A stretch of 5,427 nucleotides of DNA from a virus. Lineage: Duplodnaviria; Heunggongvirae; Uroviricota; Caudoviricetes. The notes beneath the pieces were generated by a model. That model saw only the letters and a list, made by a program, of their open reading frames with translations. It was not told where the DNA came from and made no database searches. The position numbers were made by a program, and so were the translations under genes. The stretch is taken from the IMG/VR virus record IMGVR_UViG_2667527792_000009; one strand, 5' to 3'. Below are positions 1 through 5,427 of this stretch, piece after piece; within the stretch, counting starts at the first letter, position 1, and each line of letters begins with the position of its first letter.

Positions 1-316
1 TGAGTTTTACCGGCACTTCTTCTGCACTGGTTCCGGCATCTGCCCAGACAACCCCGACCAGCGGATCAGAGCCGCTGTTAGTCAGCTGAACTTTTCCGGA
101 CTTCAGATAAACCTTCTTACCCGTTTTCATGTCATCCGTTTTCAGCTTAGGCAGCATAAACACACCTTCGGTCATGCCGTCGCCTGTTTCACCCTGTGGA
201 ATATCGGTCAGCGCCACCGCAAAAACATCGCCCACCTGCACCAGATCTCCGCTGCTGATGGCTGCACTGGCAACAATCGCCACCGTTTTTCCTTCTTCTA
301 CAAAATTCTTTGCCAT
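1..316 (-). CDS. Small phage head-module protein, DUF2190-like (putative capsid decoration/cement protein); partial, 3' end beyond window start
   Basis: ATG at 316-314 with GGAGA Shine-Dalgarno 5-6 nt upstream; minus-strand frame stays open to position 1 (about 105 codons; absent from the ORF track because no stop falls inside the window). Hand translation: MAKNFVEEGKTVAIVASAAISSGDLVQVGDVFAVALTDIPQGETGDGMTEGVFMLPKLKTDDMKTGKKVYLKSGKVQLTNSGSDPLVGVVWADAGTSAEEVPVKL. Gly/Val/Ala-rich small protein in the position directly downstream of the capsid gene. Family assignment is from memory of the motif pattern. Confidence 0.6.
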   Translation of the reverse strand, partial: MAKNFVEEGKTVAIVASAAISSGDLVQVGDVFAVALTDIPQGETGDGMTEGVFMLPKLKTDDMKTGKKVYLKSGKVQLTNSGSDPLVGVVWADAGTSAEEVPVKL

Positions 317-359
317 AACTGTCTCCGCACAGCCCCGTTCAGGGGCTGATTTCAGGTAC

Positions 360-378
360 AAAAAAAGCCCTTACGGGC
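360..378 (-). terminator. Putative Rho-independent terminator downstream of the protease-capsid gene
   Basis: On the minus-strand transcript: GCCC-GUAA-GGGC hairpin (plus 367-378; 4 bp GC stem, 5 with a G-U closing pair, GNRA tetraloop) followed directly by U7 (plus-strand A run 360-366). It starts about 25 nt after the TAA stop at 405-403. Stem is short, so probably a partial terminator. Confidence 0.5.
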
Positions 379-402
379 CATCAGAGTTGTTGTCTGCGAC
401 GT

Positions 403-2361
403 TTACGCCGTACATTTCACCAGACCGCGGTGATCAACTGGCGCGACACCGGCGTCAATACGCACTTTCGTTGTCACGCCATCCACACTGAAGCCCTCCA
501 TCTGATCAATATATGGCGTATCCACACCGTTGAGATAAGCCACTTCAATCGTATCGGAGCCTTTTGACGCAGCCAGGTAGAAGGTGGTCTGGCTGTTATC
601 ATCAAGACGAGGCTCTGCAATAACGGTCGCAAAATCTTTCACCGGGTTAATAATACCGGCGTTAATGTCAGCCCCCTTGACACTTGAGGAGCGAATGACC
701 TGGTTAGCAACAGACTCCATCGCCGTCGGTACCAGTACGAACGCAGGACGAATATTCAGATGACGCTCCCCCTCTTTCTGAACGCGCATCAACTGGCGGG
801 CTTTATCCAGCGATGCCACGTCCATTGCAGCGCTCTCCAGTACGTTTGCATGTTTCGCTTTATCGAACAGACTTACATTATCTGTGGAGATTTTCGGGTT
901 AGACGTCAGAATGGCATAAACCAGATCGGCAATAGTGGATTTCGCCGCACGGCCCAGTTTCATCGGGACATCGGTCAGCATATTCAGATCATCATTGATA
1001 ATGGCCTGACGGGTGATACTGAACAGCTCGCCATAGGTCGCCAGTGCAATAGTGGCCTGTTTATCTCCGGTGGTGACGTATTTATATTCCGCCCCTTCAC
1101 GCACCTGACGCAGAGCACTGAAGCCCCCCATACCCACACGATGGGCAATTTTAAAATCAGACAACTGACCTTTCCGCGTCCACTGTTCATAGGTTTCAGG
1201 GGCATCTTCCCAGCCCTGCAGAATGGCTTTGTTCGCAACATCCAGCAGAATATTACCGAAGTCAGACGTACTGTGTGTGAACGCCGCACCGACCATCTGC
1301 ATCGGGTTATAACCGGAAACCCCAATACCCCGTTCAGTTAGTGACATACGGGCATATTCACGCAGGGTCATCCCGTTGTAGACATTATCACGTTCGGTTT
1401 TTTCAAATCCGGCACGCGCCATCAGCGCCTGGCGGATCCCGTCCCCCACAAAATTACCGTTACCGGCATAAATATGAGCCGGGGTATTTTTATTGGATGG
1501 CGTGGACTCGCGCCCCATCTCGTTCAACAGCTTTTCACGGGCCTGCTCCAGCGAACATTCAGGATCGGCAAGACACTGGGCCTGCAGCATCTGATAACGC
1601 CCGCCAAACATGGCAAACAGATCATTAATACCGTTTACACGCGCTTTTTGCTCTGCCAGTACCTGCGCACGGATACTGTTTTCATCCACCACGGGTGCTG
1701 CTGCCTGCACTGGCGTCCGGGAGGCTGCAGGTTCATCATCCTGTACGCGTGGAGCACTGTTGCGTGGCGGAGTAATCATGTTTCGAATGGATTCCGGCAT
1801 CTTTTTAAATTCCTCTGTACGTTTTGACTGAATACATGCCATTGCCTTAACGGCTGGTGTCACCTGATCAGCAAATCCCTGTGCCAGACATTCGGCACCG
1901 GACATCCAGGTCTCATCCGCCAGCATGGCAGCAATTTCATCGGTGGTTTTCCCGGTTTTCTGTGCATAAGCGGGTAACAGAACCGCCTCAACTTTATCGA
2001 GCAGGTCGGCATAGGTGCGCATGTCCTCCGCATCACCGCCCGTAAAGCCAAATGGTTTATGAATCATCATGAAGGAGTTTTCCGGCATAATGATCGGGTT
2101 TCCCACCATCGCAATGACCGACGCCATTGACGCCGCCACACCGTCGACATAAACGGTAATGGACGCACCATGTGTTTTCAGTGCATTAAAAATGGCGATG
2201 CCTTCAAAGACATCGCCACCCGGTGAATTAATATGGAGATTAATGTGGGTGATATCGCCCAGTGCATTCAGATCACTGATAAACTGCTTCGCTGTAACAC
2301 CCCAGAAACCAATCTCGTCATAAATATAAATATCCGCGTCACTCTGGTGACCTGCCTGCAT
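403..2361 (-). CDS. Prohead protease (ClpP/S14-like) - scaffold-like linker - major capsid protein, encoded as one fused polypeptide (652 aa)
   Basis: Continuous ORF from ATG 2361-2359 to TAA 405-403. The 739-aa track ORF extends further upstream only because the frame stays open across the portal 3' end; 2361 is the first ATG after the portal stop. N-terminal ~180 aa carries ClpP-type motifs (INSPGGDV, GVAASMASV, MMIHKP, ADETWMSGAE) with a candidate Ser-His-Asp triad at codons 2130-2128, 2061-2059 and 1917-1915, spaced as in ClpP. Middle ~140 aa is an Ala/Gln/Glu-rich helical segment. C-terminal ~330 aa has the size and position of an HK97-fold major capsid protein; that part is inferred from context, not verified by motif. 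Confidence 0.8.
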   Translation of the reverse strand: MQAGHQSDADIYIYDEIGFWGVTAKQFISDLNALGDITHINLHINSPGGDVFEGIAIFNALKTHGASITVYVDGVAASMASVIAMVGNPIIMPENSFMMIHKPFGFTGGDAEDMRTYADLLDKVEAVLLPAYAQKTGKTTDEIAAMLADETWMSGAECLAQGFADQVTPAVKAMACIQSKRTEEFKKMPESIRNMITPPRNSAPRVQDDEPAASRTPVQAAAPVVDENSIRAQVLAEQKARVNGINDLFAMFGGRYQMLQAQCLADPECSLEQAREKLLNEMGRESTPSNKNTPAHIYAGNGNFVGDGIRQALMARAGFEKTERDNVYNGMTLREYARMSLTERGIGVSGYNPMQMVGAAFTHSTSDFGNILLDVANKAILQGWEDAPETYEQWTRKGQLSDFKIAHRVGMGGFSALRQVREGAEYKYVTTGDKQATIALATYGELFSITRQAIINDDLNMLTDVPMKLGRAAKSTIADLVYAILTSNPKISTDNVSLFDKAKHANVLESAAMDVASLDKARQLMRVQKEGERHLNIRPAFVLVPTAMESVANQVIRSSSVKGADINAGIINPVKDFATVIAEPRLDDNSQTTFYLAASKGSDTIEVAYLNGVDTPYIDQMEGFSVDGVTTKVRIDAGVAPVDHRGLVKCTA

Positions 2362-2374
2362 CCTGAACCAGGAA

Positions 2375-3718
2375 TTATTCTTCGGACTGGTCGTCGGTGT
2401 GCTGCGGCTCCTGTCGTTTCGTTGCGGCACTGCTGCCTCCTTTATCACTGGCCGGATCGGTATCAAATACCAGATCCAGCTTGCGGTTTTCATCAATTTC
2501 GGCCTTGCGCCGACGTTTGACATCATCCGGATTACGACCACCTGCACGTACCCAGTCTGATTCTGTCGCCGCTCCACCACGAATCTGAATTTTCCAGGCC
2601 TCAGCCTCCTTAACAGGGTCAATCCACGGCATCACCGGTCCGGAATACACCGCGGTATACAGTGAAGATCGGTCCAGATCGCGGGGTAGCCTGATAACAC
2701 CGGATGCCACAGCCTGTTTCAGCCAGGCACGGTACATCGGGCGGGTGACGGCACCAATAAACCAGTCCTGCAGGATCAGGTAGCCATCAGTAGATTCAAC
2801 CAGCTCCTGACGCTGGGCGCTGTAAGTGCCGTTATAGTTGCGCGCTGTACTGGAAAAACTCAGACGACTGCCCGCAGCCACGGCACGCAACTGACCATTA
2901 CGAAAAGTTTCAAGGTTAGGATTGGGGCGATCCGACTTCACCATTCCGATTTCTTCGCCGGGTTTCAGATCGTCGTAAATAATGCCTGGCTGAATGGTAA
3001 GCTCGCGTTCATTCTCCTTGCTGTCATTACCATCCGTTTCATAGCTCTGTCCGTCGCCTTTCCGGATGTACATCCCCAGAGCAGCGGCGATCCTTGCTGC
3101 AGTCAGCTCAGAATCTTCATACTCTTTCAGAGCACTGAGGCGGATCAGCACACCGGACAACAAAGACGTCCCGCGCATCTGGTGCAGACGGCGAACAAAT
3201 TTAAGATGCAGCATTCGCTCTGCATCCACTTCTTTGGTTTCCATCTGCCGCCCGGATACGGGACGGCTTTTATACACCAGATATTTTTCGGGACGCCCCC
3301 AGTCATCAACAAACACGCCCTGATTCAGCCTGTTGCTCTCATCACTGGTCATGGGAATAAAGTCCGGCTCGAGCGCCTCCAGCCAGAAATGAACACCGGC
3401 AGAAGGCGTCAAGCTGTTTATGCGCCCGGAAACCATCTGGGCAAACACCTCACCATCGCGCAGCCAGGTACGCAGCATCAGACGTTCCAGCATCGGACGG
3501 GTAAACTGCCCGGTGACCTCCGGACTGACAGACCATTCACTCCATCGGGTGCGAATCTCCGCTGCCAGATCACGGGCAATGGCCCCATTGCGTAATACCG
3601 GATGTGGCTCGACAATAATCCCGTTTTTCCCCACCACCCGTTCTTCCAGCTTGTCAAATACACCAATGACCAGATCGTGGTTGTTATCAAGGTAACGGGC
3701 CTGCTCACGTAACGACAC
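2375..3718 (-). CDS. Portal protein, lambda gpB family (main body; N-terminal 51 codons separated by an in-frame TAG)
   Basis: 447-codon track ORF running from GTG 3718-3716 to TAA 2377-2375. Large protein with acidic C-terminus (..HTDDQSEE) located between the gpW-like gene and the prohead protease, as in lambda W-B-C order. The same frame continues upstream to ATG 3883 but is interrupted by TAG at 3730-3728. Confidence 0.8.
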   Translation of the reverse strand: MSLREQARYLDNNHDLVIGVFDKLEERVVGKNGIIVEPHPVLRNGAIARDLAAEIRTRWSEWSVSPEVTGQFTRPMLERLMLRTWLRDGEVFAQMVSGRINSLTPSAGVHFWLEALEPDFIPMTSDESNRLNQGVFVDDWGRPEKYLVYKSRPVSGRQMETKEVDAERMLHLKFVRRLHQMRGTSLLSGVLIRLSALKEYEDSELTAARIAAALGMYIRKGDGQSYETDGNDSKENERELTIQPGIIYDDLKPGEEIGMVKSDRPNPNLETFRNGQLRAVAAGSRLSFSSTARNYNGTYSAQRQELVESTDGYLILQDWFIGAVTRPMYRAWLKQAVASGVIRLPRDLDRSSLYTAVYSGPVMPWIDPVKEAEAWKIQIRGGAATESDWVRAGGRNPDDVKRRRKAEIDENRKLDLVFDTDPASDKGGSSAATKRQEPQHTDDQSEE

Positions 3719-3727
3719 GGCCCCGTA

Positions 3728-3883
3728 CTAGCTTAACTGGTCGGCAGTTCGGCTCTCCCGTCGGGCTTTATGTGTCCGCGTCGTTTTTACGGCCTCATAA
3801 GCCTGGATCACCGCACGGGAACGCAGCCTTGCCGCTTTCCATCTTGGTGAAAAAACGCCAATCACATCATCAAGAATTGCCAT
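3728..3883 (-). pseudogene. Portal N-terminal segment (51 codons) cut off from the portal body by an in-frame amber codon
   Basis: ATG 3883-3881 overlaps the gpW-like stop (TGATG) and has a GAGG Shine-Dalgarno about 5 nt upstream. Hand translation [51 protein letters not shown], then TAG 3730-3728, then YGA and the GTG at 3718, all in the portal frame. Confidence 0.55.
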
Positions 3884-4095
3884 CAGAACCTCGCCAGCCG
3901 GTACCCGGGATGCCCCCGTCGTCGTGTAATCAGAGCCGCAAGGCGGCGCTCCCACTCCTGCCGCCCCTGCCGGATCTCAGATAAGTTTTCCATGGTCATC
4001 TGCTGACCATTAAAAGTGACGGATTTTCCGTCCAGCACCGCCATTTCAGCTTCCGTATAACGCTGAATCATGGCTTCAATATCATTCTGATTCAT
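3883..4095 (-). CDS. Head-tail joining / head completion protein, lambda gpW-like (70 aa)
   Basis: Small ORF sitting exactly between terminase large subunit and portal, as W does in lambda. Start assigned to ATG 4095-4093 (GGAGG about 6 nt upstream) rather than the track ATG at 4101-4099, which has no spacer after the same GGAGG. The start overlaps the terminase stop as ATGA; the stop overlaps the portal start. Sequence [32 protein letters not shown]...RRRG is of gpW size with an RRRG-containing C-terminus like lambda W (from memory). Confidence 0.7.
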
Positions 4096-5075
4096 AACCA
4101 TCCTCCGGAAGTCAGCCAGGGGTTAACATCGTCAGTTACTGTTTTCTTCCGTTTTTGTTTTTTAACAGGCGTGGGTACCGGTTCCGGTGAGGGTGACGGT
4201 TCGGTACTGTCCGGGACACACTCCAGCCAGGTTTCCCGGCTCGCCCACTCCGGTGCATCCGGCCAGCGGATCTTTTCGTATCCATGCAGAATGACCAGAG
4301 CCTCGGCATACACCATCAGGTCAAAAGCTTCGTTGGCACCGCGACCCGGCTTACTCCATTTCCCGTCACTGCTCCGCTCTTCATACGTCAGTTCGTCGTA
4401 AAACCAGCTCCCCAGCCAGTCAGGGAAATGCACATAGCCTGGACCTGGCGAGTCACGCCATAACGCGTTATTCACCCGGTCTTTCAGGGCATCCGTCTGA
4501 AGAAGCCAGAGCGGCACATCACCTGCGGCCTGCGCCCGGCGGCCCGTTCGTCCGGTGTTATCAGGGAATGTACGGCTGATCAGTTTTGCGCGCCGGATGC
4601 TGTCGCCCTTAAACAGGTAAATACGTTTACCAAGGCCATCACGACGGCAACGACGCCAGAATTTATAGGCATTATCAGTGACCCCGTCTTCACCGCCGGA
4701 GTCCACCGCCATTGCCATCAGTCGCATTTGTTGAGAAGGATCGGAGGCCAGCGGCCAGCTTTTATGAAAAACATCCGTCAGCAGGACATCCCAGTCTTCC
4801 GGATAGCTGGCCGGATCAATTCGCTGGCTCTCCCCGTCGCAGTCACTGCGCAATGACTGCGTGATGTTGTAACGATCAATAATCCAGCGTTCGCCACGGC
4901 TGCCATAGCCCGTTACCTGAACCACAAAACGGCGATGACGTCCCGCCTGCACATCCACTGTCGCCACAAGGAAATTAACGCCATCCGGAACACTGCGGGA
5001 AGGAACTGGCTCTGCCCGCTGCTCAAGCAGTTCACTTTTTCGTTGCTCCATGCTGGCACGAGGAAGATAAGGCAA
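4092..5075 (-). pseudogene. Terminase large subunit (lambda gpA family), C-terminal nuclease-domain fragment; N-terminal ATPase domain absent
   Basis: Minus-strand frame ending at TGA 4094-4092. The translation from about codon 109 of the 435-aa track ORF (..[33 protein letters not shown].., ..[20 protein letters not shown].., ..[13 protein letters not shown].., ..[10 protein letters not shown].., ..[14 protein letters not shown]..) matches the conserved C-terminal pattern of gpA-type terminases as I remember it. Upstream of about 5075-5080 the same frame is only the antisense of the adhE/LuxR fragments. The only in-frame ATG nearby (5051-5049) has no Shine-Dalgarno, and no Walker-A ATPase region is present. 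Confidence 0.65.
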
Positions 5076-5077
5076 AC

Positions 5078-5285
5078 AGTCTAACGCACTGATGCACCAC
5101 CCAGACATCAACCTGATCCTCGCGACTGGTGGTCCGGGCATGGTTAAAGCCGCATACAGCTCCGGTAAACCAGCTATCGGTGTAGGCGCGGGCAACACTC
5201 CAGTTGTTATCGATGAAACTGCTGATATCAAACGGGCAGTTGCATCTGTACTGATGTCCAAAACCTTCGACAACGGCGTAATCTG
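5078..5285 (+). pseudogene. adhE: Internal fragment of aldehyde-alcohol dehydrogenase gene adhE (about residues 195-245), ending just before the catalytic-cysteine codon
   Basis: Plus-strand translation [68 protein letters not shown] matches, from memory, the E. coli AdhE aldehyde-dehydrogenase domain. Native AdhE continues ..DNGVICASEQS; here the codon after GVI is TGG (W) and the sequence diverges. The three codons 5' of SNAL (G-K-Q) do not match AdhE (expected V-E-L), and TAA lies in frame at 5068-5070. No Shine-Dalgarno before ATG 5092. Confidence 0.7.
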
Positions 5286-5427
5286 GTTAGCGGCGGGCGA
5301 ATCAAATAAGGAGATCGGCAGAGCGCTGAATATCAGTACCGGAACGGTAAAAGCGCATCTGGAATCCCTGTATCGCCGTCTGGAAGTGAAAAATCGCATC
5401 CATGCCAGCGGTCTGGCAAGCCTTTGA
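5286..5427 (+). pseudogene. C-terminal fragment of a LuxR/GerE-type helix-turn-helix regulator, fused in frame to the adhE fragment
   Basis: Translation ..[43 protein letters not shown] then TGA 5425-5427 fits the second half of the LuxR/GerE HTH consensus (G.SNKEIA..L.IS..TVK.H...I..KL.V.NR..A). The first part of the domain (LT.RE.EVL..) and any receiver or ligand domain are missing. I could not assign it to a specific known regulator. Confidence 0.5.

Follow-up and report, generated by a model that had tools for sequence, protein, structure and literature searches.

The half terminase gene of an Escherichia coli prophage contig is best explained as a false join in a draft assembly

Lambdoid phages of the mEp460/cdtI type carry a large terminase subunit (TerL) of the lambda gpA family, composed of an ATPase domain (GpA_ATPase, PF05876) and a nuclease domain (GpA_nuclease, PF20454). 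In the intact 699-aa protein of E. coli strain 101EVA (WP_000507029.1, encoded at 234360-236459 of chromosome NZ_CP138393.1), Pfam places GpA_ATPase at residues 40-303 and GpA_nuclease at residues 325-643. The full-length terminase shares 29% identity with lambda gpA, and no solved structure was found for it by sequence search. An earlier interpretation made from the letters of the present DNA only (hereafter the sequence-only reading) had left room for full-length members of about 320 aa; this does not hold, since family members have 699-700 aa (mEp460, 700 aa) and the lambda protein has 641 aa. The native head module appears to be ordered as DUF1441 small terminase, gpA-type large terminase (699 aa), gpW-like adaptor, portal, protease-capsid fusion and decoration protein. 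The DUF1441 small-subunit gene lies directly upstream of terL in the prophage loci L001, L012, L004 and L005-L010. Cryptic lambdoid prophages such as Qin of K-12 are also close to the case described here, which shares with them the Qin-type flanks seen in 101EVA, an amber codon in the portal gene, and relatives with inactivated terL. However, the truncations of cryptic prophages are deletions or IS elements common to whole lineages, whereas the break reported here is private to one contig and joined to a patchwork.

The stretch of DNA analyzed as a whole (the window, 5,427 bp) has all its long genes on the minus strand, and together they form a lambdoid prophage head module (Table 1). Positions 1-5075 are identical to E. 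coli strain 101EVA (5075/5075) and 98.6-99.1% identical and colinear with the functional phages HannyBb, mEp460, cdtI, phi458 and Ayreon, being near-identical, colinear head-gene DNA of the mEp460/cdtI-like phages. At least 80% of the window is found in one place in 1,804 of the 5,426 complete E. coli genomes. Judged by these comparisons, the prophage falls in the known mEp460/cdtI-like lambdoid group, a common type with no new biology. In 101EVA it is flanked by the Qin-type genes gnsB, ynfN, cspI, rzpQ, rrrQ, ydfR and essD, and on the basis of these flanking genes we read it as a probable fuller relative of the K-12 Qin prophage. A terminator-like hairpin lies between the capsid fusion and decoration genes, and its location corresponds to that of a rho-independent terminator annotated in the mEp460 record.

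Table 1. Features of the window and segments of the contig that contains it. Positions are those of the window unless preceded by L014 (contig CDRT01000199.1).
Feature	Position	Strand	Basis
DUF2190 / head-decoration gene, last 8 nt left of the window	1..316	-	RefSeq annotation of the identical L001 region (5993-6316); Pfam Phage_cement_2 in L014
Terminator-like hairpin and T run, downstream of the capsid gene	366..379	-	Pattern scan
ClpP-like prohead protease / major capsid fusion gene, 675 aa	403..2430	-	RefSeq L001 6403-8430; Pfam CLP_protease and Phage_capsid_4 in L014
Portal gene, 502 codons, in-frame amber at 3728-3730	2375..3883	-	Translation and comparison with relatives
gpW-like head-tail adaptor gene, 70 aa	3883..4095	-	L001 9883-10095; mEp460 gp03 annotated 'head-tail adaptor'
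gpA-type large terminase gene, 3' part, codons 373-699 and stop	4092..5075	-	100% tblastn match to intact residues 373-699; Pfam; lambda gpA alignment
Point of the probable false join terL/adhE	5076..5078	.	Direct comparison of the window with L014; parental sequences
adhE internal fragment, sense	5079..5285	+	megablast against adhE in 5,426 genomes, best identity 99.1% over 5075-5285
yhjB (LuxR/GerE HTH regulator) internal fragment, sense, in frame with the adhE piece	5286..5398	+	113/113 identical to the common yhjB allele; Pfam GerE; alignment
rnt start (antisense), opening an 8,235-bp native chromosomal segment	5398..5427	-	30/30 match to rnt
Chimeric adhE'-yhjB' ORF, 95 aa, gene call in the public record	5140..5427	+	Exact-product look-up
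Lysine-tRNA ligase (lysS/U) fragment	L014 1 to ~118
motB' and motA', both truncated	L014 ~118 to 1106
Phage head module	L014 1120-6428
adhE fragment	L014 6432-6638
yhjB fragment	L014 6639-6751
Native rnt'-gloA-nemA-nemR-ydhL-ydhF-sodC-ydhKJI-slyA', 8,235 bp, 100% identical to many genomes	L014 6752-14986
gcd internal fragment, in-frame fusion to slyA codon 63	L014 ~14985 to 16080
Short tail	last 24 nt of L014

The sequence-only reading had recognized a terminase from 4092 to about 5075, and this limit proved to be exact: in every alignment (101EVA, mEp460, cdtI, HannyBb) the phage homology ends at 5075. The fragment corresponds to nt 1117-2100 of the intact 2100-nt terL, with the break in phase 0, and its residues are identical to 373-699 of the 699-aa 101EVA protein and nearly identical to mEp460 gp02 over the same stretch. 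It aligns with the C-terminal part of lambda gpA, retaining the nuclease core (D413, D497 and N620-E-A-x-D624) and the C-terminal tail. For the window ORF 4092-5399, Pfam gives only GpA_nuclease (profile positions 48-294 of 294, E = 3e-69), so a gpA-type C-terminal endonuclease domain with its conserved acidic residues is present, and GpA_ATPase was not found in this ORF. That the nuclease part is kept, as had been claimed, is correct with one qualification: the first 47 positions of the nuclease model are also cut off, which means that the break does not coincide with any domain boundary. Compared with an intact mEp460/cdtI-type TerL, the window copy is without residues 1-372 (the whole ATPase domain, including the Walker A motif GPARTGKT), these 47 nuclease positions and the upstream small-subunit gene. 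As that reading also stated, neither a Walker A motif, a small-subunit gene nor a cos region is found in the window; with the N-terminal 372 aa of TerL and the DUF1441 small subunit as tblastn queries, nothing below E = 1 was recovered in it. The adaptor and portal genes follow the fragment in the expected order, the gene position being that of mEp460/cdtI-type phages. No sigma-70-like promoter was seen in 4900-5427. Its sequence places the fragment in the gpA terminase family, and we attribute the missing ATPase half of this copy to a misjoin.

To the right of 5075, where an adhE/LuxR patchwork had been described, the phage DNA indeed adjoins an adhE piece of about 210 bp, followed by a yhjB piece of 113 bp. 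The description missed that the last 30 bases are the start of an 8.2-kb native rnt region. The three joins of the window are blunt, with overlaps of 0-1 nt, and no IS element, att site or repeat was found at them. Upstream of the break, the minus-strand frame of terL remains open, with no stops in 117 codons (352 nt). Taking random patchworks of coding DNA as the comparison set, this frame is open over 352 nt in 4.4% of them and both strands are open in 1.3%, so the open frame needs no special explanation. Selection for open reading frames was rejected on these figures, the in-frame same-sense joins (2 of 6) being unremarkable as well.

An exact-product look-up found the 95-aa product of 5140-5427 on a single record, CDRT01000199.1 (locus L014; 16,115 bp), from the E. 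coli draft assembly GCA_001373215.1. The exact products of the 435-, 349- and 338-aa minus-strand ORFs and of the 111- and 57-aa plus-strand ORFs retrieved no public record. The window is L014 1354-6780. It starts at the end of a 204-aa ORF (L014 1353) and finishes on the stop codon of the 95-aa ORF (L014 6780); with both ends at gene-call boundaries, it is an excerpt from a longer record rather than a complete contig. A literature search on the assembly accession returned no publication on it, the sole match being an unrelated Pectobacterium paper. The contig strings together at least seven segments whose E. coli loci are unlinked, with at least six internal joins, and its breaks cut within lysS/U, motA, motB, rnt, slyA and gcd (Table 1). 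The native segment keeps about codons 1-174 of rnt. In the 5,426 complete genomes, no single place covers 80% or more of the contig; its pieces are spread over a median of 6 places per genome. A second unnatural join lies 5.3 kb left of the terL break, inside the phage module (phage Gifsy-2-family gene), to motA. Outside the window (L014 1-1353 and 14795-16115), lysS/U is joined to a truncated motB, and slyA codons 1-63 are fused to gcd.

The record contains 18 ambiguous bases (N) in four clusters, three of them on joins and one near the contig end. The motA/phage join has 9 N (L014 1107-1122), the terL/adhE join has N at L014 6429 and 6431, and the slyA/gcd join has one at L014 14984; the remaining cluster (L014 16081-16091) is 24-34 nt short of the end of the contig. 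Positions within 15 nt of a join make up only about 1.2% of its length. N is lacking at lysS/motB, adhE/yhjB and yhjB/rnt, three of the six internal joins. We infer that the N on joins reflect the consensus where reads from two different true loci collide, the appearance expected of a false join once a consensus has been called from reads. The two N of the terL/adhE join are window 5076 and 5078, where the window writes A; the apparent mismatch to adhE at 5078 is thus no real base. This substitution of A for N hid the clearest sign of a misjoin from anyone reading the sequence alone.

We then looked for the joins elsewhere. The three window joins are absent from all 5,426 complete E. coli genomes, and BLAST of the junction region did not find the terL/adhE and adhE/yhjB joins in plasmid and phage collections. 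Exact patterns over one or another of the three joins gave no match in IMG/VR, GTDB species representatives or JGI metagenomes. Of the 1,996 genomes that carry the 400 bp across the break, 1,966 have them without interruption. In 101EVA and GPEC1405, the closest relatives, which have the same portal amber, terL encodes the intact 699-aa WP_000507029.1 with DUF1441 directly upstream, indicating that the lineage of the window has a complete terminase operon. A truncation shared by relatives, or bounded by a deletion or an IS element, was not found for this terL, whose partner is a 210-bp adhE piece.

From the contig and the genome comparison, we conclude with a probability of about 0.88 that terL is interrupted at 5075 by a false join in the draft assembly of an ordinary mEp460/cdtI-like prophage. 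The half terminase is almost certainly an artefact and not a nuclease-only terminase. Unrelated chromosomal pieces would have been wrongly attached to both ends of a 5.3-kb stretch of the head module; on the right, the attachment cuts terL at codon 373 and would make the gene look like a terminase reduced to its nuclease and continued by a patchwork of adhE, yhjB and rnt. The real terL of the strain is most likely complete, with its ATPase half and small-subunit gene, as in every related genome examined. The joins may have originated from spurious-overlap (greedy) chaining of short reads or contigs, or from chimeric library molecules, and ambiguous consensus bases would have been left at the collisions. 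The contig has what chimeric contigs show, namely multiple joins of loci unlinked in finished genomes and an ambiguous consensus at joins. It resembles misjoined draft contigs in its abrupt joins, its read-sized filler (113 and 210 bp), its chimeric gene calls and its absence from finished genomes, and nothing in the data departs from that picture. Two other artificial origins were rejected: ligation at restriction sites (Hi-C-like), as the parental sequences at the three window joins have no common site, and template switching of reverse transcriptase on mRNAs, as the segments are of mixed polarity. The sequence-only reading had itself named a misjoin at 5075-5080 as the finding that would overturn it, and as far as the contig and the comparison go this is what we see, with at least six joins, N at 5076 and 5078, and intact relatives. 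Its further step, that the element lost its ATPase and could not package DNA, follows only if the join is real, and the contig evidence points the other way. Its observation is therefore confirmed, and its interpretation is only partly supported.

If the joins were real, they would record a shattering-type (chromothripsis-like) rearrangement with several double-strand breaks, in terL, rnt, motA, motB, slyA, gcd and lysS/U, and the prophage terminase would truly be without its ATPase half. The deposited sequence does contain the joins, and, given the K-12 gene order, an inversion broken within terL and within rnt would leave the rnt segment in the orientation seen here; the two genes presumably lie within roughly 100 kb on the same side of the Qin site in the K-12 map. 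This fit is unpersuasive once the other joins of the contig are counted, and a real terL-rnt inversion was set aside in view of four more joins and the N clusters on the same contig. The ends would have been sealed by ligase-A-dependent alternative end joining, bluntly, with adhE and yhjB fragments of 100-200 bp captured as filler. Capture of unrelated DNA in E. coli end joining was reportedly observed by Chayot and colleagues in 2010. E. coli has no Ku/LigD end joining (PMC4872102). A low-efficiency alternative route exists in this species, and PMC4872102, citing Chayot et al. 2010, gives it as rare, ligase-A-dependent and mostly using microhomology, whereas the three window joins are blunt. 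Moreover, at least six joins among scattered chromosomal loci would have to be packed into 16 kb, with N exactly on three of them and every chromosomal break inside a gene, and neither the 5,426 complete genomes nor the two closest relatives show anything similar. We consider real joins very unlikely; if true, they would represent an exceptional multi-break rearrangement and an unusually complex case of end joining for a species lacking Ku/LigD.

Ordinary prophage decay, in which a deletion took away the 5' half of terL together with its upstream genes, as in the cryptic Qin of K-12, seems to us even more improbable. The family does decay, with four independent inactivating mutations at terL codons 331-360 in other strains and a portal amber common to two complete genomes, but a deletion would join terL to nearby DNA, while here it meets pieces of distant loci (adhE, 210 bp; yhjB, 113 bp) with N at the join, and the unnatural join to motA on the left, inside the phage module, would be left without account. 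Scarcely credible is a stand-alone nuclease-only derivative of the terminase, domesticated or kept for a function of its own. On at least 9 other contigs, a 319-aa nuclease-only product starting from the ATG at 5051 has a gene call of its own. In the six places that were inspected, however, the ATPase part is directly upstream, split off by a nonsense mutation or frameshift at one of four sites, and in the window the fragment has no promoter-like site upstream, the break lies off the domain boundary and the junction is unique to one contig.

A false join, as we propose, has little biological importance, and its practical value is a warning on a public record. In CDRT01000199.1, at least six false joins were turned by gene callers into chimeric proteins that are now in protein databases, and the calls adhE'-yhjB' (with its GerE hit), slyA'-gcd', truncated rnt and truncated terL can mislead. 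The 95-aa adhE'-yhjB' call scores as a GerE/LuxR HTH protein. Chimeric ORFs of 433 and 204 aa are also called as genes on the contig, and the 205-aa RNase T call (L014 6655-7272, minus strand) lacks the ~41 C-terminal residues of the protein and continues into antisense yhjB. Within the adhE fragment, window 5235 has a synonymous T-to-G change (CGT to CGG) that all 5,426 complete E. coli genomes lack; a consensus error and a private SNP are both conceivable origins. The 5,075 bp of the phage part, unlike this fragment, show no difference from their best match.

The separate ATPase and nuclease gene calls of other E. coli assemblies (L005-L010) are split between codons 331 and 360 of terL, by W340am (TAG), a 1-nt deletion at nt 992, a change of E360 to ochre (TAA) or a 14-nt deletion at nt 1026. 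Given the adjacent ATPase part and the four different splitting mutations, these nuclease-only calls are, as written in those assemblies, pseudogenes. The portal gene of the window has its own defect, overlooked in the sequence-only reading: Q52 is changed from CAG to the amber TAG, while L005, L006, L009, L010 and mEp460 all have CAG. Among the 1,872 genomes with this portal segment, only two, 101EVA and GPEC1405, contain the exact 61-mer with the amber, and the portal of both has an 'internal stop' flag in RefSeq. It is probably a real inactivating mutation, which would prevent head assembly with or without an intact terminase, and it appears to be a better candidate than the half terminase for a true packaging defect in this lineage.
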